A stretch of 64,000 nt of DNA from an uncultured Gemmatimonadaceae bacterium (GCA_964580055.1 CAZOJI010000011.1:34759-98758); one strand, 5' to 3'; shown: positions 2-22,794, counted from the stretch's first letter. Notes: generated from the letters alone by a model not told the origin. Translations and numbers: made by a program.

Positions 2-832
2 ATGACCATCTCGCAGGCCATTCTGTGGGCGGCGTCGAACGTCGAGCCCGAGAAGAAGCCCTCTGAGATCATGGCTTGCGATCCCTACTTCATCGGCTCG
101 CACTCCGGTGCTTCCGGTGCTTGGGTTTCCGGTCCCGAAGATCTGCAGACCGCAGAGACCAAGGACGAGTATTTCTGGGGTTACGCCAACATGACGACCG
201 TGCGGGGCATGTTCGCCGCTGGCGACGCCTCCGGTGCTTCCAGTCACAAGTTCTCTTCGGGCTCGTTCACCGAGGGCCGCATCGCAGCCAAGGCGGCGTG
301 CGCATACATCGTTGACAACAACGAGGCCCCGAACGTAGATCAGGCTCAGGTCGATGAATTGACCAAGTTGATTCTCCAGCCGCTGGACACTTACGAAGAG
401 TTCAAGGGTGCGACAACGGATCCCGAGATCAACCCGAACTACATTCGGCCGAAACAGTTCATGTACCGCATGCAGAAGATCATGGACGAGTATTCGGGCG
501 GCGTTTCGGCACAATTCATGACCAGCGACAAGCTCCTCGAGAAGGGCATGGAGCTGCTCGACTTCCTGAGGGAAGACGCGACCAAACAGGCCGCGAGCAG
601 TCTTCACGAGTTGATGCGTTGCTGGGAGAACGTCCACCGTATGTACCAGGCCGATGCGCATATGCGCTCGATTCTGTTCCGTGAAGAGACCCGTTGGCCT
701 GGTTATTACTTCAGAGCGGACAAGCCGAAGATCGACAACGACAATTGGCTTGCGTTCTGTAACTGCAAGTACGACAGGAACACGGGTGAATGGGAGATGA
801 TGAAGAAGCCCGTTAAGTACATCACCGTCTGA
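2..832 (+). CDS. aprA: Adenylylsulfate (APS) reductase alpha subunit, C-terminal 276 aa (5' end outside window)
   Basis: ORF is open to the window edge. The C-terminal flavoprotein stretches FAAGDASGASSHKFSSGSFTEGR and REETRWPGYYFRADKP look like AprA. qmoABC and sat follow on the same strand. Confidence 0.9.
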   Translation: MTISQAILWAASNVEPEKKPSEIMACDPYFIGSHSGASGAWVSGPEDLQTAETKDEYFWGYANMTTVRGMFAAGDASGASSHKFSSGSFTEGRIAAKAACAYIVDNNEAPNVDQAQVDELTKLILQPLDTYEEFKGATTDPEINPNYIRPKQFMYRMQKIMDEYSGGVSAQFMTSDKLLEKGMELLDFLREDATKQAASSLHELMRCWENVHRMYQADAHMRSILFREETRWPGYYFRADKPKIDNDNWLAFCNCKYDRNTGEWEMMKKPVKYITV

Positions 833-854
833 TTGGTTGTTGGAAATCGGGACT

Positions 855-881
855 CTCGGGCGTCGCTCCTTGACGCCCGAG
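855..881 (+). terminator. GC-rich stem-loop 23 nt after the aprA stop (possible partial terminator or mRNA stabiliser)
   Basis: Perfect 10-bp stem CTCGGGCGTC / GACGCCCGAG with a 7-nt loop. No U-tract follows, so it is not a canonical intrinsic terminator. Confidence 0.35.
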
Positions 882-1000
882 GTCCCACTCCTGGACTCCA
901 CAGAAACTTCTTGTCACCGAAAGGCACACGGACTTTCGCGGCTGGGCGAGGGACGGTTTCCAGGCCGGCATGATTGGGTGATGATCGACCGAGGAATCCA

Positions 1001-1285
1001 ATGAAAGAAATGTCTCGAACCTGCCCACATTGTAGCACACGTCTCAGTAAGTGGCGCGTGCCAGCTGAAGCCTCCTGGGAAGAGGAGTTCTTCTACGTCT
1101 GTTTCAACGATGGCTGCTCGTACTATCAAAACGGCTGGAAGTGGATGGAGGAGCAGTTCAGTCAACGTGCATCCTACAGATACGCGGTCAATCCGACTAC
1201 CGGTGCCGCTTCGCCACTTCCTGTCTGGTCCGACACGGCAACAAGGGAGATGATCGTAGATGAGAGTGAAGGGAGCAACGAATGA
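1001..1285 (+). CDS. Small 4-Cys zinc-ribbon protein of unknown function
   Basis: Track ORF 974..1285. ATG 1001 is preferred because GAGGAA lies 4 nt upstream. It has CPHC ... CFNDGC cysteine pairs. Its stop overlaps the next start (ATGA at 1282-1285). Confidence 0.6.
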   Translation: MKEMSRTCPHCSTRLSKWRVPAEASWEEEFFYVCFNDGCSYYQNGWKWMEEQFSQRASYRYAVNPTTGAASPLPVWSDTATREMIVDESEGSNE

Positions 1286-2178
1286 GTGACGACAATCGCT
1301 TCTCGGCTCCCGGGTCCACGTTGAGGAATCTGGAGGAGAAGTTGTTGGAGGACAGCCCCAGGTTGGGCTTGGACGACAAGTTCAAGTTCGGTTGTCACCC
1401 AGGGGTTTCGTGTTTCAATCGCTGTTGCCACGATGTGAACATCTTTCTCTCTCCCTACGACGTGCTTCGCCTCAAGAATCGTCTGGGCATGACGTCAACC
1501 GAATTCCTGGATAGATACGCTCTGTTGCCGGTTCAAAAGGAGATGAAGACTCCTGTTGTCGTTCTTCGGATGAACGACGACGAGACGAAATCGTGTCCGT
1601 TTCTCAATGATGATGGGTGCAGCGTGTATACTGACAGGCCGTGGCCATGTCGCATGTATCCGCTGGGCATGGCAGCTCAGAAGGACACACCTGACGGGTG
1701 GGGCGGGGAGAAGTTCTATTTCCTCTTGCAGGAAGAGGCGTGCAAGGGTTTTGGCGAGGATACGGAGTGGACGGTGCGCCAATGGCTCGACGACCAAGGC
1801 ATCTATGAGTACGACCGCTGGGGCGACGGCTACAAGGAACTGACATTGCACCAGTTCTTCGAAAGTGACGAGGCCGCGCTCTCGCCTGAAAAGATGCACA
1901 TGCTGTTCACAGCCTGCTACGATCTGGACAGGTTCCGGGAGTTCGTGTTCGAGAGCACGCTGCTGGACCGCTTCGAGATCGATGAGGAGTTCGTCGAAGC
2001 CATGCGCACGGATGATGAAGAACTGCTGAGGTTCGGATACCTGTGGCTGCAGTTCAGCCTGTTTGGTGAGAAAACGATAAGAGTGAAGGCCGAGGTCGCC
2101 GAGGCTTTCAAAGGAAGCCTCGACAAGCGGCAAGTGTTCGACAAGGAGTCTGCCGACGAAGGCTCCCGAAAAGGATAG
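1282..2178 (+). CDS. CxxCxxCC-family (YkgJ/UPF0153-like) putative Zn/Fe-S protein
   Basis: Has the motifs GVSCFNRCCHD and CPFLNDDGCSVYTDRPWPCRMYP typical of the PF03692-type family. Overlaps the upstream ORF in ATGA fashion and ends 3 nt before qmoA. Confidence 0.7.
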   Translation: MSDDNRFSAPGSTLRNLEEKLLEDSPRLGLDDKFKFGCHPGVSCFNRCCHDVNIFLSPYDVLRLKNRLGMTSTEFLDRYALLPVQKEMKTPVVVLRMNDDETKSCPFLNDDGCSVYTDRPWPCRMYPLGMAAQKDTPDGWGGEKFYFLLQEEACKGFGEDTEWTVRQWLDDQGIYEYDRWGDGYKELTLHQFFESDEAALSPEKMHMLFTACYDLDRFREFVFESTLLDRFEIDEEFVEAMRTDDEELLRFGYLWLQFSLFGEKTIRVKAEVAEAFKGSLDKRQVFDKESADEGSRKG

Positions 2179-2181
2179 ATC

Positions 2182-3450
2182 ATGAGCGGAAATGGCAAAC
2201 GGGGTACGATACTCGTTGTCGGTGGTGGAATAAGCGGAATTACGGCTGCAATAGAGGCGTCCGAAGCTGGCAAGGACGTCGTACTGGTGGACAAGAACCC
2301 GTACTTGGGTGGACGTGTCGCCCAGATGAAACAGTACTTCCCAAAGATGTGCCCACCTTCCTGCGGTCTGGAGATCAACCTGCGGCGCATAAGGACCAGT
2401 TCCAGCATACGTTGTCTGACGCTGTCCGAAGTCGAGAAAGTCGCCGGGGAGGCGGGGCGTTATCAGGTCACCGTCAAACGACAGCCACGGCGGGTGAACA
2501 GTAAATGCACCGCGTGCGGTGAATGCGTTGAAGTCTGCCCTGAGGAGCGTCCCAGCGAGTTCGACTGCGGAATGGGGACCACCAAAGCGATCTACCTGCC
2601 ATACAGGATGGCCTACCCCGTCCAGTACGTAATCGATGAAGCTGCATGTCTCGGTCCCGAGTGTGGCAAGTGTGTGGAGGCTTGTCCATACGACGCCATC
2701 GATCTCGAGATGAGTCCGGACACCATCGAGGTCGAAGCGGAGGCAGTGATCTGGGCTACCGGCTGGGACCAACCGGACGCCACGAAGATCGAGGGGCTCG
2801 GCTTTGGCAAGTACAAGAATGTCATAACCAACCTAATGATGGAGCGGCTGGCTGCGGAGAACGGGCCTACCGGAGGCAAGATCAAGAGGCCGTCCGATGA
2901 CAAGGAACCCGATGCCGTCGCGTTCGTACAGTGCGCAGGTTCTCGCGATGAGAATTACCTCAAGCATTGTTCCGGCGTGTGTTGCATGGCATCGCTCAAG
3001 CAGACGCAATATGTCCGGGAGCAGTATCCCGAGGCAGATATCTTCGTTTTCTACATCGACATTCGCGCACCTGGTAGACTCGAAGACTACTACCAGATGT
3101 GTCAGGAGGATGAAAAACTCCATCTGATCAAAGGAAAGGTGGCGAAGATATCGGAAGACTCTGCGAATGGCGATGTGATCGTGGAAGCAGAGGATACCAT
3201 GACTGGTGAGCGTATCGAGCAAAAGGTCAATCTGGTCGTGCTCGCAACCGGCCTCGTGCCCGCACCTGCACCGGTTAACTTCGAGGTCGATGGTGGCCTC
3301 CAGAGAGATGAGCACGGGTTCCTCACCAGCGAACAATCCCTCACAGGTATGGTCGGCGCCGGATGTGCGAAGCGTCCAGTGGACGTAGCTGTCTGTTTGA
3401 GGGACGCTACGAACGCCGCCTTGAAAGCCTTGCAGAGTGGTGTGGAGTAG
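2182..3450 (+). CDS. qmoA: Quinone-interacting membrane-bound oxidoreductase subunit A (HdrA-like flavoprotein)
   Basis: N-terminal FAD fold VVGGGISGITAA. Ferredoxin motifs CTACGECVEVCP and CGKCVEACP. HdrA-like FVQCAGSRD and CSGVCC stretches. Sits immediately before qmoB and qmoC. Confidence 0.9.
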   Translation: MSGNGKRGTILVVGGGISGITAAIEASEAGKDVVLVDKNPYLGGRVAQMKQYFPKMCPPSCGLEINLRRIRTSSSIRCLTLSEVEKVAGEAGRYQVTVKRQPRRVNSKCTACGECVEVCPEERPSEFDCGMGTTKAIYLPYRMAYPVQYVIDEAACLGPECGKCVEACPYDAIDLEMSPDTIEVEAEAVIWATGWDQPDATKIEGLGFGKYKNVITNLMMERLAAENGPTGGKIKRPSDDKEPDAVAFVQCAGSRDENYLKHCSGVCCMASLKQTQYVREQYPEADIFVFYIDIRAPGRLEDYYQMCQEDEKLHLIKGKVAKISEDSANGDVIVEAEDTMTGERIEQKVNLVVLATGLVPAPAPVNFEVDGGLQRDEHGFLTSEQSLTGMVGAGCAKRPVDVAVCLRDATNAALKALQSGVE

Positions 3451-3454
3451 ACAA

Positions 3455-5742: not shown

Positions 5743-6966
5743 ATGGCCGATGCCATAGTTCTGAAACCGGACAGGGAATTCCTGAAGACCATCCTCGCTG
5801 AGGGTGGTGCGGACATGAAGAAGTGCGTCCAGTGCGCGACATGTTCGGTCGTGTGTGAGCTTTCGACCGGACGCACGCCATTTCCCCGCAAGGAAATGAT
5901 ATGGGCGCAGTGGGGGCTCAAGGATCGGCTCGTTTCGGATCCGGATATTTGGCAGTGTCATCACTGCAACGATTGTTCTGTGCACTGCATTCGCGGGGCT
6001 CGGCCGGCCGATCTCTTGGCGGCGGTGCGCCACCAAGCCGTGAAGTACTATGCGGTTCCGAGGTTCTTTGCTGAATGGATGGATAAGGCCAAGACGCTTC
6101 CGCTCATGTTGTTGATAGCTGTGGCTTTGGTGGGGCTCGGCTTGGCTATCCGCGGTCCACTGGAGGCGGTGCTCGGTGTTGGAGAGACGCACCACGAGTT
6201 CTATGCTGCATTTTTTCCGCACTGGCTGTTGATTATCTACTTCACGACAATCACGGGTTTGGCTGCGCTGGCGGTCGTAATAGGTGCCGTGAAGTTCTGG
6301 CGAGCGATGAAAGCCGCAGATCGGGCGTCGGGCGCCGGCCCGCCTACGTTGGGCATAGTGCCTAGCATTTTTATTTCGCTGAAGTCGATTGTTGTGCATG
6401 ACAGATTTGCCAAATGCACGAGTCACGTTTCTCGCAGAGTGGCCCATTTGCTGGCGTTCTACGGTTTCGTTGTTTTGCTCGTGGTTACCGTATGGGCTGT
6501 AATGGACCTGTACCTGTTCCCGGTTATGGGAATTGAGTCGAGGTATCCGTTCGATCTCCTTCATCCGTTGAAGATCATCGCGAATGTAGGTGCGGTTCTG
6601 CTCATCTACGGTTGCGTTAGGGCGATTCTCGATCGCCGGCGCGAGCTTGAGGAAGCACCCATATCCACTGTTTTTGATTGGACTTTCTTGTGGCTGCTTC
6701 TTTTTGTAGGTGTTTCGGGGGTACTCACAGAGGCACTCAGATTCGTCGGTGAGCCCGCCGACGTCGCATGGCTGACATACACCGCGTACACCATCTACTT
6801 CATGCATCTGGTGGGTGTAGTGGGTCTGTTGGTGTATTTGCCGTATTCCAAGTTCGCTCACCTCGTCTACAGAACGGTCGCGATGGTTTACTCTGAGCAT
6901 ACCGGCCGGAACGTGAGCGACTCGAAGAGTTTGGTCCCGGTGGGCAAAGGACCCAGTAGGCAGTGA
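5743..6966 (+). CDS. qmoC: Qmo subunit C (HdrC-like FeS domain fused to HdrE-like membrane haem-b domain)
   Basis: N-terminal CVQCATCSVVCE and CHHCNDCSVHC motifs are followed by about six hydrophobic helices. Position after qmoAB. Confidence 0.88.
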   Translation: MADAIVLKPDREFLKTILAEGGADMKKCVQCATCSVVCELSTGRTPFPRKEMIWAQWGLKDRLVSDPDIWQCHHCNDCSVHCIRGARPADLLAAVRHQAVKYYAVPRFFAEWMDKAKTLPLMLLIAVALVGLGLAIRGPLEAVLGVGETHHEFYAAFFPHWLLIIYFTTITGLAALAVVIGAVKFWRAMKAADRASGAGPPTLGIVPSIFISLKSIVVHDRFAKCTSHVSRRVAHLLAFYGFVVLLVVTVWAVMDLYLFPVMGIESRYPFDLLHPLKIIANVGAVLLIYGCVRAILDRRRELEEAPISTVFDWTFLWLLLFVGVSGVLTEALRFVGEPADVAWLTYTAYTIYFMHLVGVVGLLVYLPYSKFAHLVYRTVAMVYSEHTGRNVSDSKSLVPVGKGPSRQ

Positions 6967-7053
6967 CCGGGATCGCCGTCAAGGTCCCTATTGGAGGAAC
7001 GGGAAGGACGTTTCCTCCGCCGACAATCTTTGAACGAAAGGAAGGAAAAGTTC

Positions 7054-8259
7054 ATGGGCCAGTTGGTTAAACCGCATGGTTCGGAGACGTTGAACCCATT
7101 GTACGTTGCGGACGATGCAAAGCGTGCCGAGTTGCTGAAGGAAGCGGAAGGGCTACCCAAATTGCTCGTCTGCTCTCAGGCAGCTGCCAACGCGGTGATG
7201 CTTGGTTCAGGGTATTTCAACCCGCTCAAGGGTTACATGAGTCTCGCCGATTCGATTTCCGTTGCCGAGAACATGAAGACGACCGATGGTCTCTTCTGGC
7301 CGGTTCCGATAGTCAACGTGGTGGCCGATGCCTCGGCCGTCGAAGGAGCGAAGCGCATCGCGCTGTTGGATCCAAACGTCGCCGGAAAGCCGGTGATCGC
7401 GATTCAAGATGTCGAGTCGGTCGACGTGGCCACCAAAGAGCAGATGACGAAGATGGCGGAGAAGGTCTTCCACACCACCGACGCGGAGCACCCCGGTGTG
7501 CAGAACTTCATATCGGCGGGCAACACATTCGTTGCTGGCCCGATCCAGGTGCTCAGCTATTCGTATTTCGCGGCTGACTTTCCAGAGACTTTCCGCACCG
7601 CGGTACAGATTCGCAAGAAGATCGAGGAAGACGGCTGGTCGAAAGTCGTTGCGTTCCAGACGCGTAATCCCATGCACCGTGCTCACGAGGCGCTAGTCAA
7701 GATGGCGATGGAGCGGACCGGTGCTGACGGTGCGGTGATCCACATGTTGCTCGGCAAGCTGAAGAAGGGTGACATTCCGGCCGACGTACGTGACGCGGCC
7801 ATCCGCAAGATGGTTGAACTATACTTCGAGCCGAATACCGTCGAGATCACCGGTTACGGTTATGACATGCTCTACGCCGGCCCCCGCGAGGCGGTGCTGC
7901 ATGCGGTGTTCCGCCAGAACATGGGAGCTTCGCACCTCATCGTCGGCCGCGATCACGCTGGAGTCGGTGACTACTACGGGCCGTTCGAAGCGCAAGAGAT
8001 CTTCAAGACGGAGGTCCCCGAAGGCGCCCTGGAGATCGATATCTTCGAGGCGGACCACACGGCCTATTCAAAGGTGGTCGGGGATGTGATCATGATGTGT
8101 GAGGCGCCGGAAGGTCACAAGAAGGAGGACTTCGTGCTCCTTTCAGGCACCAAGGTTCGCGAGATGCTGGCCAACGGCGAGGAACTGCCGCAGGAGTTCG
8201 CAAGGCCTGAGGTGGCGCACATTCTGATGGGCTACTATCAGTCACTGCAGAAGGGCTGA
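7054..8259 (+). CDS. sat: Sulfate adenylyltransferase (ATP sulfurylase)
   Basis: Has QTRNPMHRAHE (HxxH) and IVGRDHAGV motifs. ATG 7054 has an AAGGAAGGAAAAG purine-rich RBS. The track start TTG 6991 was judged spurious. Confidence 0.92.
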   Translation: MGQLVKPHGSETLNPLYVADDAKRAELLKEAEGLPKLLVCSQAAANAVMLGSGYFNPLKGYMSLADSISVAENMKTTDGLFWPVPIVNVVADASAVEGAKRIALLDPNVAGKPVIAIQDVESVDVATKEQMTKMAEKVFHTTDAEHPGVQNFISAGNTFVAGPIQVLSYSYFAADFPETFRTAVQIRKKIEEDGWSKVVAFQTRNPMHRAHEALVKMAMERTGADGAVIHMLLGKLKKGDIPADVRDAAIRKMVELYFEPNTVEITGYGYDMLYAGPREAVLHAVFRQNMGASHLIVGRDHAGVGDYYGPFEAQEIFKTEVPEGALEIDIFEADHTAYSKVVGDVIMMCEAPEGHKKEDFVLLSGTKVREMLANGEELPQEFARPEVAHILMGYYQSLQKG

Positions 8260-8356
8260 GTGAACAGAGGACCGCTGGGTTGGCTCTGATTTCTGTGGAC
8301 GGAGACCAGGACCGACCGGTCAAGTTAGTTTACGCGGGCATGATTTGTTCCGAGTC

Positions 8357-8665
8357 ATGTCCGAGAGGGAAGGGAGTCGGGGGACAGCTTGGGCTCTGGC
8401 TGAAATTCTCGCCGGCTCCCTCGGTGAATGCATGGCGATGATGGTGCAGAACTGCTCCGGCACGCCTGGATACACCGAGGGCGACGTGGTGTTTCCGGTG
8501 ACATTGGAGTTGGGGGAAGAGGCGAAACGTGAGGGAGGCTTCGCCGCCGACTTGAAGTTGCCTGATCGGTCGCTGTACGAGAATTGGGCACCGTCAGGAC
8601 TGTCGCTGAGTCATGTTTGGTCAGCGGGCACTGATCGTATCGCCCAGGATATTGAATTGAGTTAG
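8357..8665 (+). CDS. Orphan ORF between sat and dsrC (hypothetical, coding status uncertain)
   Basis: Track ORF 8345..8665. Third-codon positions look G/C-biased like neighbouring genes. I recognise no motif and there is no clear RBS. Confidence 0.3.
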   Translation: MSEREGSRGTAWALAEILAGSLGECMAMMVQNCSGTPGYTEGDVVFPVTLELGEEAKREGGFAADLKLPDRSLYENWAPSGLSLSHVWSAGTDRIAQDIELS

Positions 8666-8740: not shown

Positions 8741-9058
8741 ATGGCAGAGGTTGAGCTTGGTGGCAAGATGATGGAAATCGATGAGGACGGCTTCATCCAG
8801 GATCCGGATCAGTGGGACGAGGCCGTTGCCGCCGATTTGGCTAAGACGGAAGGCGTCGACGAACTCACTGATGATCACTGGAAGCTCGTGAACTACTTGA
8901 GAGAGTACTACCTCGAGTTCAACATGGCACCGATGATCCGCAAACTTTGTAAGGCAACTGGTTTCAAGCTCAAGGAGATCTACGATTTGTTCCCGAGTGG
9001 CCCGGCGAAAGGTGCCTGTAAGGTGGCAGGTCTTCCAAAGCCGACTGGCTGCGTATGA
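8741..9058 (+). CDS. dsrC: Dissimilatory sulfite reductase gamma protein DsrC
   Basis: 105 aa. The C-terminal arm CKVAGLPKPTGCV carries the two conserved Cys 10 residues apart, the second one penultimate. GGAGGAG RBS. Confidence 0.95.
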   Translation: MAEVELGGKMMEIDEDGFIQDPDQWDEAVAADLAKTEGVDELTDDHWKLVNYLREYYLEFNMAPMIRKLCKATGFKLKEIYDLFPSGPAKGACKVAGLPKPTGCV

Positions 9059-9063
9059 TTGAA

Positions 9064-9091
9064 ACGGCGCGGGCTCGAAAACCTGCGCCGT
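9064..9091 (+). terminator. Stem-loop 5 nt after the dsrC stop (putative terminator or attenuator)
   Basis: ACGGCGCGGG / CCTGCGCCGT forms a 10-bp stem with one G-U pair and an 8-nt loop. Only a weak U-rich tail follows. Confidence 0.4.
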
Positions 9092-9196
9092 CGTTCAGAA
9101 ATGGTTCTGTACTGATTGGAACCGCGACAGGCTGTAGGCCGATTGCTCGATTGGTGGGGCGGCTCGGTCCGTACGGTGACGGTAGGGAGATGAGTG

Positions 9197-9754: not shown

Positions 9755-9776
9755 ACGTACTACGAGAGGATCTCCG

Positions 9777-12803: not shown

Positions 12804-12806
12804 GCG

Positions 12807-13613
12807 ATGGATGAGAGTAGACGCGGCTTCCTGAAGAAGGCCGGCAAGACGGCGCTCGGGCTTGGTTGGGGCTTGCCGCTTCTGAACACGGCGTGCTCAG
12901 AGCCGGGAGAACACGATCACCATATTCCGCTGCGCTCAGACAACCAGTGGGCGATGGTTGTCGATGTTGAGAAATGCCGGCAGGAAGAGGTGAGGCGAGC
13001 CTGTGTAGAGGCTTGCAGGTTGGCGCACAATGTCCCGTCGATTCCCGAGCCGGACGATGAGATCGACTGGATATGGGAAGAGGAGTACAAACACGTATTC
13101 CCCGAGCAGGTGCATGATCATACACCCGAGTCGCTGGGGGACGCGCCGGTGTTGGTGCTGTGCAACCACTGCACGAATCCGCCCTGCGTCAGGGTTTGTC
13201 CCACTCAAGCGACCTGGAAGCGGGAGACGGATGGAATCGTAATGATGGACATGCACCGCTGCATCGGTTGCCGCTACTGTATGGCTGCCTGCCCTTACCA
13301 GGCCCGCAGCTTCAATTGGCGCGACCCTCGCCCGTTCATCGATACAGACGCGGACGGAGATTTCAGGTCCGACTATCCCACTCGTACAAAGGGGGTCGTC
13401 GAGAAATGCAACTTCTGCGCGGAGCGACTCCGCATCGGACTGCTGCCCGCATGTGTCGAGGCGGCGAATTCGGTTGAGGGTGTTGAAGGGGCTATGGCGT
13501 TCGGCGATCTGACCGATCCGAACTCGGACGTGACGCGGCTCCTTGATGAGAATCACACCATCAGCAGGCGCGTCGGCCTAGGGACCGGCCCCAACGTCTA
13601 TTACATCGTCTAA
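12807..13613 (+). CDS. dsrO: DsrO, periplasmic ferredoxin-like FeS subunit (Tat signal)
   Basis: Twin-arginine leader SRRGFLKKAG. Cluster motifs CNHCTNPPCVRVCP, CIGCRYCMAACP and CNFCAERL. Confidence 0.9.
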   Translation: MDESRRGFLKKAGKTALGLGWGLPLLNTACSEPGEHDHHIPLRSDNQWAMVVDVEKCRQEEVRRACVEACRLAHNVPSIPEPDDEIDWIWEEEYKHVFPEQVHDHTPESLGDAPVLVLCNHCTNPPCVRVCPTQATWKRETDGIVMMDMHRCIGCRYCMAACPYQARSFNWRDPRPFIDTDADGDFRSDYPTRTKGVVEKCNFCAERLRIGLLPACVEAANSVEGVEGAMAFGDLTDPNSDVTRLLDENHTISRRVGLGTGPNVYYIV

Positions 13614-13656: not shown

Positions 13657-14817
13657 ATGCTGCAGGATGCATTCCGAGGGGGACGGCGATATTGGGCACT
13701 GGTGGGCTTCTGGGGTGTGCTGATCGTCATCGGGGTTAGCACTTGGGCCTACCAGCTGAGTGAGGGATTGCATATCACCGCAATGACCCAGCAGATCACC
13801 TGGGGGATGTACATTGCCCAACTCACCTTCATGGTAGGTATCGCAGCGTCAGCCGTAATGGTAGTGCTGCCATATTATCTGCATGACTACAAGGCCTTCG
13901 GCAAAATGGTGATCATCGGCGAGAGCCTGGCTGTGTCGTCGGTGCTGATGTGCATGCTGTTCGTGTTCGTCGATTTGGGCCAGCCGTCCCGCGGTGCGAA
14001 CATCATACTGCATCCCACGCCCAATTCGGTGATGTTCTGGGATATGTTGGTGCTGTCCGGATATCTGTTACTGAACCTCGTCATTGGTGCGGTTACGTTC
14101 GAGGCTGAGCGCAAGGGAGTGCCGCCACCGAAATGGGTCAAGCCGCTCATATACCTTTCCATTCCCTGGGCGGTGAGCATTCACACGGTAACGGCGTTTC
14201 TCTATTCCGGGTTGGAGGCGCGCACCTTTTGGATGACGGCGATCCTCGCTCCACGATTCCTTGCCTCGGCGTTCGCTACCGGACCCAGCCTGCTGATCTT
14301 ACTGGCCCTGATTCTCAGGCGCTTCACGACCTTTGACGCCGGAAAAGAGGCGATTCAGAAGCTGGCAATGATCGTGGCATACGCTGTCGCGGTCAACCTG
14401 TTCTTCCTGCTGGTCGAGCTGTTCACTGTTGTCTACAGCAGCATCCCGCATCACACGGATGGTTTCCGCTATATGTTCTTCGGGCTTGAGGGTAAGAACA
14501 CTATTGCACCGGCGATGTGGGTTGGTCAGGCGATCGGACTGTTCTGTTTGGTAGCGTTGTGGATACCCAAAGTGCGCGCAAACGAGAAATTTCTCGCGGT
14601 GCTCGCAGTGGGAGTAATACTGTCGCTTTGGCTAGAGAAGGGTGTGGCCATGGTGGTTGTCGGTTTCATCCCGGCACCTCTCGGGGAGGTGAGCGAATAC
14701 ATTCCCACGCTCCCCGAGTATTTGATTACAATTGGAGTTTATTCCATTGGATTCTTGCTGCTAACGATGTTCTACAAGATCATAACGACCGTAAGAGAGA
14801 GATTGGGACCGGCATAG
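13657..14817 (+). CDS. dsrP: DsrP, NrfD/PsrC-like integral membrane subunit
   Basis: About 10 hydrophobic helices. Position after dsrO. GAGAGG RBS. Confidence 0.88.
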   Translation: MLQDAFRGGRRYWALVGFWGVLIVIGVSTWAYQLSEGLHITAMTQQITWGMYIAQLTFMVGIAASAVMVVLPYYLHDYKAFGKMVIIGESLAVSSVLMCMLFVFVDLGQPSRGANIILHPTPNSVMFWDMLVLSGYLLLNLVIGAVTFEAERKGVPPPKWVKPLIYLSIPWAVSIHTVTAFLYSGLEARTFWMTAILAPRFLASAFATGPSLLILLALILRRFTTFDAGKEAIQKLAMIVAYAVAVNLFFLLVELFTVVYSSIPHHTDGFRYMFFGLEGKNTIAPAMWVGQAIGLFCLVALWIPKVRANEKFLAVLAVGVILSLWLEKGVAMVVVGFIPAPLGEVSEYIPTLPEYLITIGVYSIGFLLLTMFYKIITTVRERLGPA

Positions 14818-14824: not shown

Positions 14825-14850
14825 CACACGCGGCTTCCTGTGTGTTTTTT
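14825..14850 (+). terminator. Weak hairpin plus T6 tract after dsrP
   Basis: CACAC / GTGTG 5-bp stem (plus one G-U pair) followed by TTTTTT at 14845-14850. The stem is short, so support is weak. Confidence 0.3.
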
Positions 14851-14937: not shown

Positions 14938-16155
14938 ATGGCAGATTCAGGTAACAATGGCACTCCGTTGCTGGACGAACTGGAAAAGGGACCCTGGCCC
15001 AGCTTCGTTACGCAGATCAAGGAGGCAGCCGAAACGAAGGAGTCGTCCGCGGCTCTGTTGAGATTGCTGGAGCGTTCGTACGGTGAGAAGATCGGCCACT
15101 GGAAGCACGGCGGCATCGTGGGTGTGATGGGTTACGGTGGCGGCGTCATCGGCCGGTACAACGATCTGCCGGAGGATTTCCCGGAGATCGCCCATTTCCA
15201 CACGATGCGCATCAACATGCCGACGGGTTGGTTCTACACCTCAGATGCGTTGCGCACGGTGTGTGACATCTGGGACAAACATGGTTCTGGTCTGACCAAC
15301 ATGCACGGATCGACCGGTGACATCATTCTGCTCGGCACGTCCACGGACGAATTGGAGCCTACGTTCCAAGAGTTGGCGCAGAACGGTTTCGATATTGGTG
15401 GCTCGGGCTCCGACCTGCGGACGCCGAGCGCGTGCAATGGCATGGCGCGGTGTGAGTGGGCATGCTACGACACACTGGCTGCCTGTTACGACTTGACTCA
15501 GGAGTTCCAGGACGAGCTGCATCGGCCCGCTTTCCCATACAAGTTCAAGTTCAAGTTTGCTGGATGCCCGAACGACTGCGTTGCGTCGGTGGCGAGAGCC
15601 GATCTGTCGGTCATCGGAACCTGGCGTGACGAGATCCAGATCGATCAGGCAGAGGTGAAGGCTGCTGAAGAAGCTGGACTGGACATACTCAGGGACGTTT
15701 GCTTCAACTGTCCGACGAGGTGCATCGAGTGGGACGGCGAAAAGCTCGAGATCGACGATTCGAACTGCGTGAAGTGCATGCACTGCATCAACGTGATGCC
15801 GAAAGCTCTGCGCCCCGGCAAGGACAGGGGTGCGACGATCATGCTCGGCTCCAAGGCGCCGATTGTGGAAGGTGCGATGCTGTCATCGGTTATCGTTCCG
15901 TTCATGAAGATGGAGCCTCCCTTTGAGGAACTCAAAGACCTGATCGAGAGGATCTGGGATTTCTGGGCTGAGAACGGCAAGAACCGGGAACGCTGTGGCG
16001 AGTTGATGCAGCGCATCGGCCTCGGGAATTTCCTGGAAGAGATCGAGGTGGATCCGATTCCCCAAATGGTTGCACATCCCAGGGACAATCCTTTCATCTT
16101 CTTCGAGGATTACTATGAAGAAGGCGATGAGGATGAGGAAGAAGATGAAGAATAG
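14938..16155 (+). CDS. dsrA: Dissimilatory sulfite reductase alpha subunit
   Basis: Sirohaem/FeS motifs [11 protein letters not shown] and [11 protein letters not shown]. Ferredoxin insert CFNCPTRC / CVKCMHC. Unusual poly-acidic C-terminus [12 protein letters not shown]. Confidence 0.95.
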
Positions 16156-16220
16156 AGCTGCTGGGCGAGACTCTCGGCATGCGAACATGAGACTAATTGT
16201 ACCAATGGGGAGATAGAGCG

Positions 16221-17300
16221 ATGGCAGTGTCAAAGGACAGGATAACGGATATCGGACCTCCGCATTATGAGAAGTTCCTGCATCCAGTTATAAAGAAGAA
16301 CTACGGGCAGTGGAAGTACCATGAGATCTTGAAGCCTGGCGTGATGGTGCATGTCGCCGAATCCGGCGACAAGATCTTCACGGTGCGAACGTCTTCTCCG
16401 AGGCTGCTCTCCACCACACGGATCCGCAAGTTTGCCGAATTGGCGGACAAATACTGCGACGGTCACCTGCGTTTCACCAGTAGAAACAACGTGGAATTTC
16501 TACTCGCGAGTGACGAGAAGATCGACGATCTTATCGCCGAATTGAAGGATCTGGGCCACTCAGTGGGTGGTATCGGCAACGCGATTTCCAATATCGTGCA
16601 CACGCAAGGTTGGGTGCACTGCCACTCGGCAGCGACGGACGCGTCCGGCGTCGTGAAGGCTGTGATGGATGACTTGCACGAACACTTTGCGTCGAACGAC
16701 GTGCCCGGAAAGCTCCGCATCGCCCTGGCATGTTGTCTCAACATGTGCGGCGCCGTACACTGCTCGGACATCGCGATACTCGGAGTGCACCGCAGGCCAC
16801 CGCGGGCTGACCACGCGACTCTCAACAAGCTGTGCGAGATTCCGAATGTGGTTGCCTCGTGTCCTACGGCGGCTATCAGGCCGGCCACGGTGGAGGGGCA
16901 TCCTTCAGTCGAGATTGACGAAGATCTTTGCATGTTCTGCGCGAACTGCTTCACGGTATGTCCGTCTCTACCCATGGCCGACGCGTTGAACGACGGTGTT
17001 TCGATCTGGGTGGGCGGCAAAGTATCGAACGCCCGTTCCGAGCCTACCTTCTCGAAGCTGGCTATACCGTGGCTGCCGAACACCCCGCCGCGTTGGCCTG
17101 AAGTGACAGAAGCGGTGCGGAATATCGTAGACGTGTGGGCGAACAACGCTCGCAAGTTCGAGCGGATGGGCGAATTCATCAACCGTATCGGTTGGCCGAG
17201 GTTCTTTGAGATGACCGGCATCGAGTTCCAGAAGGAACACATCGATGATTTCAAGCACGCGGGACTGACTTACAAGCGGTCCGCGCAGCTCAGACACTAG
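16221..17300 (+). CDS. dsrB: Dissimilatory sulfite reductase beta subunit
   Basis: Has [28 protein letters not shown] and ferredoxin [12 protein letters not shown] motifs. ATG 16221 is preferred over the track start 16197. Confidence 0.95.
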
Positions 17301-17582: not shown

Positions 17583-17596
17583 CATCAAAATAATTC

Positions 17597-17612: not shown

Positions 17613-17652
17613 CTTGCCCTCTCCAGAGTGGGCGTGGGCAGAGGTGTGACTA

Positions 17653-19335
17653 ATGGCTGTCAAAAAGACCAAGAAAAGGAAGAAGAAGCGAGATTATAGT
17701 GCATCCGGAGGTGGCGGTGGACGCGAACAATCACCGCTACGGCCGAAGCACGTTGAAAAGAAGCCGCCCTGCCGCGACACCTGTCCCAGCGGTAATCGCA
17801 TTCGGGAGTGGCTGACCACGATCGCCCAGGCCGAACGCTTAGAGAAACCCAGAGACCAGGCATTTACCGAGGCTTGGGATCTCTATACCGACACCAGCCC
17901 GTTTCCGTCGGTGTGTGGACGCGTATGCCCGCATCCTTGCGAGACTGCTTGCAACAGGCAGGAACTGGACGGCGCAGTGGGCATAAATATGGTGGAGCGC
18001 GTAATCGGTGATTTCGGTTTGGAGAACGACCTCAAACTCAAGATGCTCACCGATGAGAAGCGTCCGGAAAAGATTGCGGTCGTTGGTGGCGGGCCCGGTG
18101 GCTTCTCATGTGCTTACCAGCTTGCGAGACGTGGCTACTCCGTTACTGTGTTCGAGGCGTCCGACAAGCCGGGAGGGATGTTGCTCTGGGGTATACCCAG
18201 GTACAGACTCCCCGAGGACGTCATCGAGAAGGAAATCCAGAAAATTTTGGATCTCGGCGTAGAACTGAAATGCGACATCCGAGTCGGAAAGGATATCAGC
18301 CTCGACGAACTTCACGAACAGTACCAAGCCATATTCGTCGCGGTCGGTGCCGAGAAGGGGCTCAAACTCCGCGTTGAGGGAGAGGACGCGGAAAACGTCA
18401 TGTCCGGCGTCGAGTTTCTCAATCGCATTCATCACGGAGAGACGGTCGAAGTCGGCGACGACGTGATTGTCGTAGGAGGTGGTGATACCGCGATCGATGC
18501 TGCACGGATCTGCAGACGTTTGGGCGCCACGGTGACGATCCTCTACCGGCGAACCATCAAAGAGATGCCGGCTATAGACGAAGAGATCGAGGAAGCGCAG
18601 ATCGAGGGTGTCAACCTGGAGTACCTCGCCGCTCCGATCGGTTTCAACAAAGACGGCGACAAGATCACGAGCATGAAGTGTATTCGCATGGAGCTCGGAG
18701 AGCCGGATGATTCCGGAAGACGGCGGCCGGTGCCAATCGAAGGCTCGGAGTTTGAGATCCCAGCGAGTACCGTGATCCCCGCTATCAGTCAGGAACCGGA
18801 CTTCACCGGCCTCGAATCCCTCATCGAGGGACGCGACTGGATCAAAGTGAACGATGAATTCGCTTCCACAAAGGAAGACGATGTGTGGGCAGGCGGCGAT
18901 GCCACCAATCTGGCCTTGGTAACGGACGCCATCGGACATGGCCGATATGCCGCTGAGGCTATAGACAGGAAGTTCCGCGGTTTGGGAAAACCGCAAGACG
19001 GCATGCCGGTCATCACAGCCGACAAGATGCTGCTCGATCACTACGACAAAGCTGAACGCGCCAAAGCAGGAACTCTGCCGGTGGAGGAACGCCTGGCCAG
19101 CATGGAAGCCGAGGTGAACCTGCCTCTGTCCGAGGAAGAAGCGGTCGCAGAGAGCAAACGGTGCATGAGTTGCGGCTATTGCATGGACTGCGAGAAGTGC
19201 TGGATGTACTGCCAAGACCAGGCAATCGACAAACCGATGCAAAGAGGCGCTCTCTACGTCTTCAAACTCGGTAACTGCACGGGTTGCGGAAAATGCGCCG
19301 AGATATGTCCGTGCGGCTTCATCGAGATGGCGTGA
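17653..19335 (+). CDS. DsrL-like NAD(P)H:acceptor oxidoreductase (GltD-type flavoprotein with C-terminal 2x[4Fe-4S] ferredoxin domain)
   Basis: GltD-like N-terminal FeS region (GRVCPHPCETACNR). Two dinucleotide folds (VVGGGPGGFSCAY, VVGGGDTAIDAA). C-terminal CMSCGYCMDCEKC and CTGCGKCAEICPCG motifs. Located directly after dsrABD. Polybasic N-terminus KKTKKRKKKRD. Confidence 0.7.
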   Translation: MAVKKTKKRKKKRDYSASGGGGGREQSPLRPKHVEKKPPCRDTCPSGNRIREWLTTIAQAERLEKPRDQAFTEAWDLYTDTSPFPSVCGRVCPHPCETACNRQELDGAVGINMVERVIGDFGLENDLKLKMLTDEKRPEKIAVVGGGPGGFSCAYQLARRGYSVTVFEASDKPGGMLLWGIPRYRLPEDVIEKEIQKILDLGVELKCDIRVGKDISLDELHEQYQAIFVAVGAEKGLKLRVEGEDAENVMSGVEFLNRIHHGETVEVGDDVIVVGGGDTAIDAARICRRLGATVTILYRRTIKEMPAIDEEIEEAQIEGVNLEYLAAPIGFNKDGDKITSMKCIRMELGEPDDSGRRRPVPIEGSEFEIPASTVIPAISQEPDFTGLESLIEGRDWIKVNDEFASTKEDDVWAGGDATNLALVTDAIGHGRYAAEAIDRKFRGLGKPQDGMPVITADKMLLDHYDKAERAKAGTLPVEERLASMEAEVNLPLSEEEAVAESKRCMSCGYCMDCEKCWMYCQDQAIDKPMQRGALYVFKLGNCTGCGKCAEICPCGFIEMA

Positions 19336-19339
19336 AGCA

Positions 19340-20782
19340 CTGAATTATCCGCGCGTTCTCGTCGCCGGGCTGCGCGGAGGCAGCGGTAAAACACTCGTTT
19401 CTCTGAGTCTGATTGCAGCCTGGCGAAAAAACGGCAAGAAGGTAGCCCCTTTCAAGAAGGGGCCAGACTACATTGACGCGGCATGGCTGTCTGCCGCAGC
19501 GAACGCCCCTTGCCGGAACATCGATTTGTTTCTGATGTCCGGAACGGGCGTTCTGCGTTCGTTAGGTACAGCCTCGAACGCAAGCGACGTCGCTGTGATC
19601 GAAGGCAACCGAGGCCTCTACGATGGAATGGATGCTAGTGGCAGTTACAGTTCCGCTGAACTGGCAAAACTGCTGAGTTCGCCGGTTGTGCTGACAGTTG
19701 ATTGTACCAAGTCCACGCGCACAGTCGCTGCAATGGTCCTGGGTTGTCAGCAGATCGATCCCACGGTCCCACTGCGAGGTGTCGTGCTGAACCAGGTTGG
19801 AGGCACTCGGCATGAGGGAGTGGTGCGTGGCGCGATTGAACGGGACTGCGGGATACCGGTTCTGGGAGTGCTGCCGCGGATTCGGCGCCAGCTTTTTCCC
19901 GAGAGACACCTGGGACTCGTCCCGCCACAGGAACATATGGAGATGAGAGCAGCAATCGAAGGGGTTGCCGCGGTGGGAGAGCAATACCTCGATCTGGATG
20001 CCCTTTGGAGTCTCGCCCGGCAAGCTCCGCGTTTCGAGTTCGAGCCTCATACGGTTGCCGACTCGCCAGGCCCGGAGTGCGAAACGGTCAATATCGGGGT
20101 GTTCCGTGATGCGGCGTTTCAATTCTACTACCCGGAGAACCTGGAGGCTCTGGTCAGGGAAGGTGCGCGTATCAAAGAGATTTCTCCTCTGTCCGACGAG
20201 GAACTTCCCGACGTGGACGCGCTGTATATCGGTGGAGGCTTTCCTGAGACGTTGGCACGGCGGCTGTCATGCAACGAGATCTTTCTCGACTCTGTGCGCA
20301 GGCAGGTAGAAGATGGTCTTCCTGTTTATGCCGAATGTGGCGGAGCCGTCTACTTGGGAGAGAAATTGCTCTACGAGTCCGTAGAGTATCCCATGGTGGG
20401 CGTTCTGCCGGTCTCGTTCGGGTTTCGAGGCAAACCACAGGGGCACGGTTACGTTGAACTGGAGACGGTGCACCGCAACCCCTATTTCCCTGTAGGAAAA
20501 CCGCTGAGGGGACACGAATTCCACTACACTCGTGTGGAATCTTCCGCAATGGATGACATTAGCTTCGCTTTTCGGGTGACCAGAGGTTTCGGATTCGACG
20601 GCGAGCGGGATGGCTTATGTCGATTCAACGTGCTAGCCTCCTACACGCACTTGCATGCTCTGGGAACGGGGAGCTGGGCTCCTGCTGTTGTCCAAGCAGC
20701 CAAGCGATTCAAAACAGGCAGAAGAGACGCGTCGGGCGCCCCGGCGTCGGAGGCGGCGGCGCGTGGAAACCGTCCCTCTTAG
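19340..20782 (+). CDS. dsrN: DsrN, CobB/CbiA-type glutamine amidotransferase (sirohaem amidase)
   Basis: The conserved P-loop N-terminus PRVLVAGLRGGSGKT is encoded in frame upstream of the track start (TTG 19526). No ATG, GTG or TTG is available, so the start is provisionally placed at CTG 19340. C-terminal amidotransferase domain has ECGG. Confidence 0.8.
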   Translation: MNYPRVLVAGLRGGSGKTLVSLSLIAAWRKNGKKVAPFKKGPDYIDAAWLSAAANAPCRNIDLFLMSGTGVLRSLGTASNASDVAVIEGNRGLYDGMDASGSYSSAELAKLLSSPVVLTVDCTKSTRTVAAMVLGCQQIDPTVPLRGVVLNQVGGTRHEGVVRGAIERDCGIPVLGVLPRIRRQLFPERHLGLVPPQEHMEMRAAIEGVAAVGEQYLDLDALWSLARQAPRFEFEPHTVADSPGPECETVNIGVFRDAAFQFYYPENLEALVREGARIKEISPLSDEELPDVDALYIGGGFPETLARRLSCNEIFLDSVRRQVEDGLPVYAECGGAVYLGEKLLYESVEYPMVGVLPVSFGFRGKPQGHGYVELETVHRNPYFPVGKPLRGHEFHYTRVESSAMDDISFAFRVTRGFGFDGERDGLCRFNVLASYTHLHALGTGSWAPAVVQAAKRFKTGRRDASGAPASEAAARGNRPS

Positions 20783-21772
20783 ATGAAAGACAACATGATG
20801 CGATTACGCAGTTTCAAGGTGTTCACTCGTGTAGGCGCGTTCGTCTTCCTGGCGCTTGCACTGCATCCGGCACTTCTGCACGCAATGCAGGAGACGACGG
20901 CGGCTCCAGGCGCCGATACGGTAGCCTGGTGGGTGTGGCCGTTGGTGCTGCTCGTGCTGACGTTTGTGATGGGGATCCTTGCTGCGTTGGGTGGTGTGGG
21001 TGGAGGGGTACTCTTCGTACCAATCGTCAGCGGTTTCTTTCCCTTCCATCTCGATTTCGTACGTGGCGCAGGGCTGTTGGTGGCTCTGAGTGGCGCACTA
21101 GCCGCGGGACCTGGGTTTTTGAAGATGAACCTGGCGAGCTTACGGTTGGCAATGCCTGTGGCCCTGATCGCGTCTACCTGCGCGATCATAGGGGCAATGA
21201 TAGGTCTGGCTCTCCCGACCAATGTCGTGCAGACCGCCTTGGGTGCCACCATTCTCGGAATCGTGATTCTCATGATCACAGCCAAGAAGTCGGAGTTTCC
21301 CGACGTTCCCAAGGCGGACGGGATTTCATCTGCCTTGGGGATCTACGGAGTCTATACCGAGGCAAGCTTGGGGAAGAACATCGACTGGAAGATCCATCGG
21401 ACGGCGCACGGTCTCTTCTTGTTCATCTTCATTGGTCTGATGGCGGGAATGTTCGGGCTCGGTGCAGGTTGGGCAAATGTTCCCGTTCTGAACCTGGTCA
21501 TGGGAGCACCGCTCAAGATCAGTGTGGCAACGAGCAAGTTCTTGCTGTCCATAACTGATACCTCGGCTGCCTGGGTGTATCTCAACCAAGGTTGCGTTAT
21601 CCCAATGATGGTTGTTCCGTCATTGATAGGAATAATGCTGGGGTCGTTCATCGGCGTGAGAATCCTCAGGGTTGCAAAACCGAGCTTCGTTCGCTGGCTC
21701 GTAATCGGCCTGCTACTGTTCGCGGGGGCCAAAGCCATTACCAAGGGCTTGGGCATTCCGTTTTTCTTCTAG
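20783..21772 (+). CDS. TauE/SafE (TSUP) family anion permease
   Basis: Polytopic membrane protein with Gly-rich repeats GGVGGGVLFVP and GLGAGWANVP typical of the TauE/SafE family. Its ATG directly abuts the dsrN stop (0-nt gap). Confidence 0.75.
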   Translation: MKDNMMRLRSFKVFTRVGAFVFLALALHPALLHAMQETTAAPGADTVAWWVWPLVLLVLTFVMGILAALGGVGGGVLFVPIVSGFFPFHLDFVRGAGLLVALSGALAAGPGFLKMNLASLRLAMPVALIASTCAIIGAMIGLALPTNVVQTALGATILGIVILMITAKKSEFPDVPKADGISSALGIYGVYTEASLGKNIDWKIHRTAHGLFLFIFIGLMAGMFGLGAGWANVPVLNLVMGAPLKISVATSKFLLSITDTSAAWVYLNQGCVIPMMVVPSLIGIMLGSFIGVRILRVAKPSFVRWLVIGLLLFAGAKAITKGLGIPFFF

Positions 21773-21793
21773 GATGCTTGGGGAGCGATACCA

Positions 21794-22240
21794 ATGACTG
21801 AAGATACGAAAACCCCGGAAGCCAACGAGGAACAGCTCCTCTATGCGAGAATTCTGGAAGTCGGGATGTACACCGGTTTGGCACTTCTGCTGGTGACCTT
21901 CGTGCTCTATATGACCGGGATTCTAGCGCCGGCAATACCGATCGAGAGGGTCCCAGATTATTGGGTCATGAGCGTCCACGACTACGGTGAGGCCATCAAT
22001 CGCGATTTCTTGCATCGAGATCATATGGTGACTGGGTGGGGCTGGTTGGCGGTTGTTTCCAAGGGAGACTTTAGCAATTTTTTGGGCATCGCCTTCCTCT
22101 CTGGAGTGACCATCGTTTGTTACATCGGTATCATACCCACACTCATTCGGAAGAAACAAACTGCCTACTTACTGATAGCCGTGGCCGAAGTATTGATTCT
22201 AGTGCTTGCGGCCAGCGGGATACTCTCAGTAGGCCACTGA
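21794..22240 (+). CDS. Small membrane protein, DUF1634-like (tentative) partner of the TauE permease
   Basis: 148 aa with about 4 hydrophobic helices, 21 nt after the permease gene. The family name comes from my memory that this pairing is frequent and is not verified. Confidence 0.5.
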   Translation: MTEDTKTPEANEEQLLYARILEVGMYTGLALLLVTFVLYMTGILAPAIPIERVPDYWVMSVHDYGEAINRDFLHRDHMVTGWGWLAVVSKGDFSNFLGIAFLSGVTIVCYIGIIPTLIRKKQTAYLLIAVAEVLILVLAASGILSVGH

Positions 22241-22299
22241 TTCGGTGCGCATGAATGGTAGAATTCGAGTGATGCCAAGAAGGCTGTGATAGAGGGTTT

Positions 22300-22794
22300 T
22301 TGACTAACCTAAAGTTCCTGCCCGTGGGCTTGGATGTTCGTGAGAAAAAGTGCGTTGTCGTGGGTGGTGGCGTCGTTGGCAGCCGCAAAGTCACGAACCT
22401 AGTTAGAGCCGGGGCGAAAGTTACCGTGATCTCACCCGATGTGGTGGACAGCTTGGCTGGCGAGATAGAAGCCGGAACCGTGCTGTGGATTCAGGACTCG
22501 TATCGGGCGGAATATCTCGAGGGTGCGTTTGCGGTGGTCGCCGCCACCGACGACGAGGCGCTCAATGCGCACATCGTGCAAAACGCCACAGACCGGCAAA
22601 TCCTTATTTGCGACGCATCCGCTGCTGAGCGTTCGAACCTGATCTTTGGTGCTTTGCACACGCTCGAAGACGGCGTTACGATTGCCGTATTCACTGACGG
22701 CCGGGACCCAGCCAAAGCCAGAAGGTCGCGAGACCTCATCGCCAACCTTTTGGACGCGGGCGGCATGCAAGGTGGCAAATCCGAGTTTGGTTGA
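22300..22794 (+). CDS. sirC: Precorrin-2 dehydrogenase / sirohydrochlorin ferrochelatase (SirC/Met8/CysG-N type)
   Basis: N-terminal Rossmann motif KCVVVGGGVVGSRKV and overall length match the short siroheme synthase N-domain. TTG start. Confidence 0.75.
   Translation: MTNLKFLPVGLDVREKKCVVVGGGVVGSRKVTNLVRAGAKVTVISPDVVDSLAGEIEAGTVLWIQDSYRAEYLEGAFAVVAATDDEALNAHIVQNATDRQILICDASAAERSNLIFGALHTLEDGVTIAVFTDGRDPAKARRSRDLIANLLDAGGMQGGKSEFG

Follow-up and report, generated by a model that had tools for sequence, protein, structure and literature searches.

Gene sets for dissimilatory sulfate reduction that occupy a single genomic region have been described in several uncultured lineages. In the genomes reported by Anantharaman et al. 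(2018, PMC6018805) and in the Acidobacteriota SbA metagenome-assembled genomes (MAGs; Hausmann et al. 2018, PMC6018796) the whole pathway is found in one region, and in the acidobacterial MAG SbA2 all the genes lie on one scaffold along with syntenic genes of unknown function (PMC6018796). 'Candidatus Thermonerobacter thiotrophicus' presents the order sat-aprBA-hyp-hyp-qmoC, then dsrABD-N-hyp-L-C-M2K2, with dsrTMKJO located elsewhere (Thiel et al. 2019, PMC6338057). A survey of Gemmatimonadota from marine sediment reports gene clusters for sulfate reduction that include DsrAB, Sat, AprAB and QmoABC, and in addition a sulfhydrogenase and many peptidases (Microbiome 2024, PMC11316326). The locus compared here with these systems lies in a stretch of 64,000 nucleotides (the window) from an uncultured Gemmatimonadaceae bacterium (GCA_964580055.1, CAZOJI010000011.1:34759-98758), and comprises aprA, qmoABC, sat and the dsr genes from dsrC to dsrN. 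With a probability of about 85%, this array is the supercluster for dissimilatory sulfate reduction on the chromosome of an uncultured marine member of the Gemmatimonadota, of sediment type.

Gene identities were taken from curated profiles (NCBIfam/TIGR equivalogs with their cut-offs, and Pfam) and are collected in Table 1. Together with the open reading frame (ORF) map, the profiles place every gene from base 2 to 25683 on the plus strand, in the order aprA, znf, cxxc, qmoABC, sat, an osmC remnant, dsrC, dsrT, dsrMKJOP, dsrAB, a dsrD-like gene, dsrL and dsrN. QmoC, Sat, DsrC, DsrM/K/J/O/P, DsrA and DsrB each scored above the curated cut-off. The collinear same-strand array described by a previous sequence-only reading of the window is therefore real, and its observation is largely confirmed, whereas its interpretation is partly supported. 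The genes it named were recovered; dsrT and the two cysteine-rich genes of the aprA-qmoA interval had been left out. Its account of tight junctions, 0-4 nt or overlapping, was borne out at seven gene pairs (znf/cxxc, cxxc/qmoA, dsrM/K, dsrK/J, dsrJ/O, dsrL/N and dsrN/tauE). The co-oriented run, which it had followed to 22794, goes farther: past dsrN come tauE and the gene of a 148-aa membrane protein, then the sirohaem genes (sirC and a gene fusing ferrochelatase with GluTR) and finally a c-type cytochrome gene that ends at 25683. The first minus-strand genes are found at 25705-27214.

The central dsr genes present the features expected of their families. The C-terminus of DsrC, CKVAGLPKPTGCV, read directly, holds two cysteines spaced CX10C, and in its tail, GACKVAGLPKPTGCV followed by the stop codon, the last cysteine is the penultimate residue, as in functional DsrC and not as in TusE. 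The gene dsrT has been defined as always preceding dsrMKJOP (PMC6018805); here an RsbRD_N-domain protein is encoded directly upstream of dsrM, its gene ending about 20 nt before it, and this gene is conserved in relatives and called in an independent assembly. The ORF 9055-9348 ('o97') was rejected as a gene: it is not conserved and is overlapped by dsrT. At E<=1e-20 the PDB matches of DsrA (five distinct sequences, 3mm5 and 2v4j at the top) are all DsrA of sulfate or sulfite reducers; these enzymes being all reductive, a reductive-type DsrAB is suggested, and only suggested. In DsrL a YRR motif was read directly from the sequence, at residue 298. This motif is the hallmark of DsrL-2, a type that uses NADPH (Loeffler et al., PMC7596348), and therefore the protein is of DsrL-2 type in the sense of that work, where the domain composition and the place of the gene next to dsrAB(D) agree as well.

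Compared with the systems of PMC6018805 and PMC6018796, the window shares the position of dsrT before dsrMKJOP, the presence of dsrD and dsrL together and the syntenic conserved genes of unknown function. The differences are the phyla and the internal order, such as the acidobacterial dsrC-dsrL duo downstream of dsrAB, whereas in the window sat-apr-qmo is fused directly upstream of dsrC-dsrT-dsrMKJOP. Likeness to 'Ca. Thermonerobacter' is found in the two conserved hypothetical genes after aprA and in a sat/aprBA unit followed by dsrAB-D-N-L-C; unlike in that organism, sat follows qmoC and dsrMKJOP precedes dsrAB. An Ignavibacteriales locus (L070; L-numbers label related loci, both genome MAG loci and metagenome contigs) has qmoB directly upstream of dsrABD. 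Among the closest known systems are also those of the marine sediment Gemmatimonadota of PMC11316326, which belong to the same phylum as judged from flanking-gene homologues and whose gene clusters, sulfhydrogenase and peptidases match the window. One of the loci with identical order, L002 (86% DsrK identity), bears the isolate name M8-62_Bin_211, in the style of that paper. In the passages searched, its main text nowhere gives the order in full, as aprBA-znf-cxxc-qmoABC-sat-osmC-dsrC-dsrT-dsrMKJOP-dsrABD-L-N.

The novelty attributed earlier to the layout stands against the cultured models, in which it is not routine, and falls against uncultured lineages, for which it is documented (PMC6018805, PMC6018796, PMC6338057), including marine Gemmatimonadota (PMC11316326). 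Desulfovibrio vulgaris and Archaeoglobus fulgidus have the same protein families split over several loci (PMC6018805), whereas the window has a single locus. The window DsrA scored 531-547 bits against the crystal-structure sequences of these two organisms. To our knowledge both lack dsrL. Model sulfate reducers have a DsrD of canonical type, whereas that of the window escapes PF08679. Single-locus layout and host group are already described from metagenomes, and the window is a well-preserved example.

From the established functions of these families, sulfate would be activated by Sat, and adenosine 5'-phosphosulfate would be reduced by AprBA with electrons from menaquinol delivered via QmoABC, the cysteine-rich proteins Znf and Cxxc being possible accessories of AprBA. 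Sulfite would then be reduced by DsrAB together with DsrC, and the DsrC trisulfide by the membrane complex DsrMKJOP, regenerating DsrC. DsrD is an allosteric activator (PMC8794893), and its divergent homologue here would probably activate DsrAB, which NADPH electrons could also reach through DsrL-2. Sirohaem amide would be made by DsrN, SirC and the chelatase-GluTR fusion, and DsrT would be a likely regulator. More speculatively, DsrL-2 could receive NADPH that the NAD(P)-linked hydrogenase encoded nearby makes with H2.

Several points weigh against the assignment to sulfate respiration or against parts of it. The gene aprA is cut by the window edge, so that aprB and about 340 AprA residues lie to the left of it; aprB stands directly upstream of aprA in relatives, and an exact-protein look-up of QmoA returned only Logan contigs of 5-16 kb that also end inside aprA. 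Two independent assemblies of the same sequence stop inside this gene, and therefore the completeness claimed for the pathway is not demonstrable here. QmoA and QmoB matched no Qmo-specific model and gave HdrA-type scores all below cut-off, their names being assigned from the position between aprA and qmoC and from conserved synteny. The DsrAB trees held no oxidative-type reference sequences, PF08679 (DsrD) found no match at E <= 1 in the window protein or in 23 relatives, the hydrogenase subunits all fall below their equivalog cut-offs (231 vs 700 bits, for example), and promoters and terminators were called solely by their match to a consensus. Finally, the direction of the pathway is unreadable from the genes; an identical set is known from disproportionators and from some sulfide oxidisers (PMC6018805, PMC8794893).

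This last point bears on whether the genes run as sulfur disproportionation or as a reversed, sulfide- or sulfur-oxidising pathway, which is judged unlikely. The combination of DsrD and DsrL occurs in disproportionators, and these lifestyles are not told apart by genomic features (PMC6018805, PMC8794893, PMC6018796). SQR is encoded by many Gemmatimonadota, in part of them alongside DsrAB (PMC11316326). Respiration is favoured over these directions by the DsrD homologue, by the YRR/NADPH motif that marks DsrL as DsrL-2, by the lack of any DsrE/F/H-like ORF among the profiled ORFs of the window and by the origin of the related MAGs, mostly from deep, sulfate-rich sediment layers (PMC11316326).

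The dsrD named in the sequence-only reading is upheld by remote homology, fold and position and finds no match in searches with PF08679 or with PDB sequences. The gene begins 10 nt after dsrB and the 85-aa product was not matched by sequence to the DsrD of the PDB, even with a profile of 24 sequences, the NCBIfam search being empty as well; PF08679 does recognise canonical DsrDs, as tested on loci from Desulfobacterota and Moorella. Comparison with the PF08679-positive DsrDs by hhalign gave a probability of 89.9% (E 1.7e-6, 62 columns). The AlphaFold2 (AF2) model, with a predicted local distance difference test (pLDDT) of 85, shows three helices and a beta-hairpin forming a winged helix, on which DsrD 1wq2 superposes with a root-mean-square deviation of 2.1 A and a template-modelling (TM) score of 0.75, ranking only 48th among generic winged helices. 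The 1833 database relatives present no Pfam domain, and every name given by their sources is 'hypothetical protein'. The product is treated as a divergent DsrD homologue, as hhalign, the predicted fold and the place after dsrB would indicate. Surveys with hidden Markov models based on PF08679 would overlook the DsrD of this clade and count it as absent and, since the presence of DsrD is used to tell a reductive from an oxidative lifestyle, the omission affects ecological inference.

Gene order was surveyed by tblastn of the window proteins against 80 DsrK-anchored genome loci, plus an AprA-anchored metagenome scan. The order znf-cxxc-qmoABC-sat-dsrC-(dsrT)-dsrMKJOP-dsrABD-L-N is shared, with near-identical spacing, by 10 species-representative MAGs with a GC content of 0.555-0.689. 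Six bear Gemmatimonad- titles (L001, L002, L004, L006, L009 and L015) and the other four Planctomycet- or Pirellulaceae titles (L003, L007, L008 and L013), the labels Gemmatimonadota and Planctomycetota of all MAGs being record titles only. The metagenome scan added dozens of contigs with aprA-znf-cxxc-qmoABC-sat, at least 10 of which run on into dsrC-dsrM. In neighbour-joining (NJ) trees, which are crude since they were built on translations of high-scoring segment pairs (HSPs), the ten loci and the window group together in a single clade, bootstrap support being 100% for each of DsrAB, DsrKMOP and DsrLN. A division by title into two sets has 100/95 support in DsrAB and 0-27% in the other modules. 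The order of the array is read as a conserved trait of the MAG clade and not as a recent insertion, and the array as native to this genome. The idea that the pathway behaves as one block is supported for a unit over evolutionary time (10 MAGs, one clade); this support does not extend to co-regulation or to recent mobility.

Other lineages present the sub-blocks in other arrangements. Among the more distant ones, Myxococcota-like MAGs have the single-locus order dsrABD-L-N-C-MKJOP, Syntrophales and related groups dsrAB(D)-N-C-MKJOP-aprBA-cxxc-qmoAB, and four loci (L099, L122, L140 and L156) the variant sat-aprBA-znf-cxxc-tauE-o148 without qmoAB. Genes downstream of dsrN differ among relatives and, flanks differing on both sides, the conserved core extends from aprBA to dsrN. 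Upstream of aprBA, L095 (1-8900) encodes a CBS protein, a DASS-family Na+/sulfate symporter, a SirC-like protein and two unknown proteins, and L085 (1-4640) carries hemC, hemB and a Rex-like redox regulator.

At the APS reductase end, the pair znf and cxxc was identified after aprA in every related locus covering that position (L083-L162 among them). The cysteines C17, C20, C43 and C48 of Znf are kept in at least 95% of 78 homologues, and those of Cxxc are conserved across 73. The pair remains beside aprBA in the four loci lacking qmoAB, which suggests a role tied to AprBA. It is probably the 'hyp-hyp' pair of Thiel et al. (2019).

The 481-bp interval between sat and dsrC, previously taken as the largest gap of the array, holds a decayed OsmC-like gene. 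In every syntenic relative, the closest (L001) among them, the spacer shows protein-level conservation (tblastx, tblastn) and encodes an intact 130-aa protein matching PF02566 OsmC. In the window its counterpart is broken up, the N-terminal, the middle and the C-terminal part each being in a frame of its own, with stops, and the stretch is therefore a pseudogene; the remnant has no Pfam match and is identical in an independent assembly (L081). The neighbouring sat varies in type: L004, L006, L009 and L015, all with Gemmatimonadota titles, carry in the same slot of an otherwise identical array a sat only 42-47% identical to that of the window, whose type is common to the Planctomycetota-titled MAGs at about 80% identity. 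This distribution is interpreted as the exchange of a single gene that kept its place in the array. As a separate observation, variant contigs L094, L137 and L147 present between qmoC and sat a three-gene module resembling DsrJOP, with 25-43% identity to DsrJ, DsrO and DsrP.

The single clade is compatible with an old en-bloc transfer. A cassette from aprBA to dsrN moved as a whole between Gemmatimonadota and Planctomycetota, and since ameliorated to the composition of its hosts, is possible, with the odds somewhat against it. Some 20 genes with identical order and spacing occur in MAGs titled as both phyla and these MAGs form the fully supported clade, within which the gene trees conflict and the phylum split appears only in DsrAB; the swap of sat in place and the lateral transfer of dsr genes reported within and between phyla (PMC6018805) point the same way. 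Against it stand the nature of the taxon labels and of the trees, and a window in which neither composition nor repeats, tRNAs, integrases or plasmid matches give a sign of transfer. The conclusion of PMC11316326 is that DsrAB has not crossed from one phylum to another, whereas in the present survey a Planctomycetota-titled sister set has the same array.

The host is assigned to Gemmatimonadota, as its flanking-gene homologues and nearest DsrK loci would indicate. The secreted metalloprotease at 59653-62145 has 13 named homologues, 10 of them Gemmatimonadota, including all the closest (59-74% identity); Vicinamibacteria, Zixibacteria and an unclassified bacterium account for the other three. 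By DsrK, the nearest loci of GTDB species representatives belong to Gemmatimonadota MAGs, with 91, 86, 85 and 83% identity. The suspicion that the host is not a classical sulfate reducer is thus supported.

A recently acquired genomic island in this genome would explain the functional self-sufficiency and tight packing of the array, and GC at third codon positions (GC3) is slightly higher in array genes (0.694) than in the flank (0.658, p = 0.013), an excess that fits the codon bias of highly expressed genes. The remaining evidence makes such an island very improbable. GC is flat across the window, and tetranucleotide usage correlates equally well on one side of the boundary and across it (0.81-0.88 for array against flank segments, 0.81-0.85 for flank against flank), so that the composition of the array equals that of the rest of the window and gives no foreign signal. 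No tRNA and no long flanking repeats were found in the window, in which the left border of the array is not included; transposase and integrase families had no match among the profiled ORFs (the main frames of at least 150 aa), as the sequence-only reading had stated; and no DsrA homologue was present on 72,556 plasmids. Relatives at 90% DsrA identity share the downstream genes tauE-o148-sirC. Matching composition and the lack of mobile genes, tRNAs, repeats and plasmid homologues therefore do not support a recent island, and the potential for transfer proposed for the array has no support in the sense of a recent event.

Transcription of the entire array as one operon from a single promoter is quite improbable. 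All the genes are co-oriented and many junctions are tight, as such an operon would have them, but spacers of 141, 135, 120 and 84 nt interrupt the array, a pseudogene lies between sat and dsrC, a terminator-like hairpin follows dsrP and sub-blocks are rearranged elsewhere, as in dsrABDLN-C-MKJOP and sat-aprBA-znf-cxxc-tauE. This hairpin is the only intergenic plus-strand terminator-like site within the array in a consensus scan. A sigma-70 consensus scan gave fewer sites than shuffled sequence and is for that reason uninformative. Spacers, hairpin and internal pseudogene indicate that the array is probably read as several transcription units, and do not support its description as one co-regulated block.

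The frame of dsrN is open from 19169 and its listed ORF begins at 19526; the P-loop is encoded upstream of this first canonical start. No ATG, GTG or TTG precedes the P-loop, and a CTG is found 4 nt after the dsrL stop (19333-19345). The same codon occurs at the homologous start in L001 (~18567) and L002 (~18410), other relatives having ATG or GTG. The CTG is the probable start of dsrN, to judge from these alignments, and a gene caller that accepts only canonical starts would miss the first 62 residues, among them the ATP-binding loop.

Table 1. Features of the window, with coordinates counted from its first base and the evidence for each.
Feature	Coordinates	Strand	Evidence
aprA, C-terminal 276 codons	2-832	+	TIGR02061, E 1.5e-115, profile positions 342-614 of 616
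znf, small 4-Cys zinc-ribbon protein	974-1285	+	PF04606 Ogr_Delta, E 2.6e-7
cxxc, 298-aa CxxCxxCC-domain protein, 8 conserved Cys	1282-2178	+	PF03692, E 5.9e-9
qmoA	2182-3450	+	HdrA-type models only
qmoB	3437/3455-5707	+	HdrA-type models only
qmoC	5743-6966	+	NF038018, 379.6 bits vs cut-off 300
sat, sulfate adenylyltransferase	6991-8259	+	TIGR00339, 381 bits vs cut-off 323
Decayed OsmC-like pseudogene	8264-8665	+	tblastx/tblastn conservation with relatives
dsrC	8741-9058	+	TIGR03342, 125 bits
dsrT, RsbRD_N-domain protein	9194-9754	+	PF14361, E 8.2e-18
dsrM	~9774-10766	+	NCBIfam equivalog, 480 bits, above cut-off
dsrK	10769-12430	+	NCBIfam equivalog, 716 bits, above cut-off
dsrJ	12408/12423-12803	+	NCBIfam equivalog, 158 bits, above cut-off
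dsrO	12807-13613	+	NCBIfam equivalog, 291 bits, above cut-off
dsrP	13657-14817	+	NCBIfam equivalog, 420 bits, above cut-off
Terminator-like hairpin and TTTTTT run	14826-14845	+	consensus match only, 9 nt after dsrP stop
dsrA	14938-16155	+	TIGR02064, 574 bits
dsrB	16197-17300	+	TIGR02066, 496 bits
DsrD-like winged-helix protein, 85 aa	17311-17568	+	profile-profile comparison, fold, position
dsrL, type DsrL-2	17653-19335	+	NfnB/GltD-like core, N-terminal FeS domain, C-terminal Fer4/ferredoxin domain
dsrN, sirohaem amidase, CobB family (probable CTG start)	19340-20782	+	TIGR00379, 362 bits
TauE/SafE-family anion transporter	20783-21772	+	PF01925, E 6e-34
148-aa hydrophobic protein (o148)	21794-22240	+	
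SirC-like precorrin-2 dehydrogenase	22300-22794	+	PF13241, TIGR01470
Ferrochelatase-GluTR fusion, 670 aa	22807-24819	+	PF00762 and PF05201, TIGR01035
Multihaem c-type cytochrome (c7/NrfH-like), last of the plus-strand run	24883-25683	+	PF14522, E 1.5e-8; weak NrfH match
CGGC-domain protein	25705-26121	-	
Tandem paralogues, 147 and 169 aa	26142-26585, 26705-27214	-	61% identical to each other
Four-subunit NAD(P)-linked [NiFe] hydrogenase, sulfhydrogenase/group 3b-like	28660-32669	+	ShyB, ShyC, ShyD, ShyA (and HydBGDA), E 1e-49 to 1e-69

Downstream of dsrN, the pair tauE-o148 was also identified in L001, L122, L126, L137, L140 and L156, and in other arrays its position varies, for it may come after cxxc, follow sat or lie on the opposite strand; as judged from these placements, the pair behaves as a movable two-gene transport module. 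In L002 the genes of SirC and of the ferrochelatase-GluTR fusion follow dsrN directly, and the fusion is presumably dedicated to sirohaem supply. The CGGC gene and the two tandem paralogues are the only minus-strand genes between 2 and 40209. The paralogues underlie a 179-nt direct repeat, have no BLASTP similarity to DsrT and overlap the ORF 26340-26984 ('o214'), which is not conserved and was rejected as a gene. A threonine-synthase-like gene separates this trio from the hydrogenase, a neighbour 9 kb downstream of dsrL and outside the conserved core. An Rfam scan of the whole window gave nothing at gathering thresholds.

New in detail may be the exact order common to Planctomycetota-titled MAGs, a DsrD family that Pfam does not recognise, the use of CTG to start dsrN, the swap of sat in place and the decay of OsmC. 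A composite history, in which an aprBA-dsrN cassette of about 22 kb was passed en bloc between unrelated phyla and remodelled in place (sat swap, OsmC decay), carrying three components overlooked in standard annotation, namely a DsrD invisible to Pfam, a znf/cxxc pair linked to AprBA and not to Qmo, and a CTG-initiated DsrN, is slightly more doubtful than the transfer by itself.

We know of no cultured sulfate reducer in the Gemmatimonadota, and the window offers a clean reference, almost complete, for the sulfate-respiration supercluster of that phylum. Pipelines that rely on profiles will call too few genes in this clade, missing DsrD, shortening DsrN and leaving dsrT and the aprA-linked cysteine-rich genes as hypothetical. 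The presence of the array in MAGs titled as two unrelated phyla makes it a concrete test case for whole-pathway transfer. Finally, DsrL-2 beside an NAD(P)-linked hydrogenase suggests a possible soluble route from H2 through NADPH to DsrAB.

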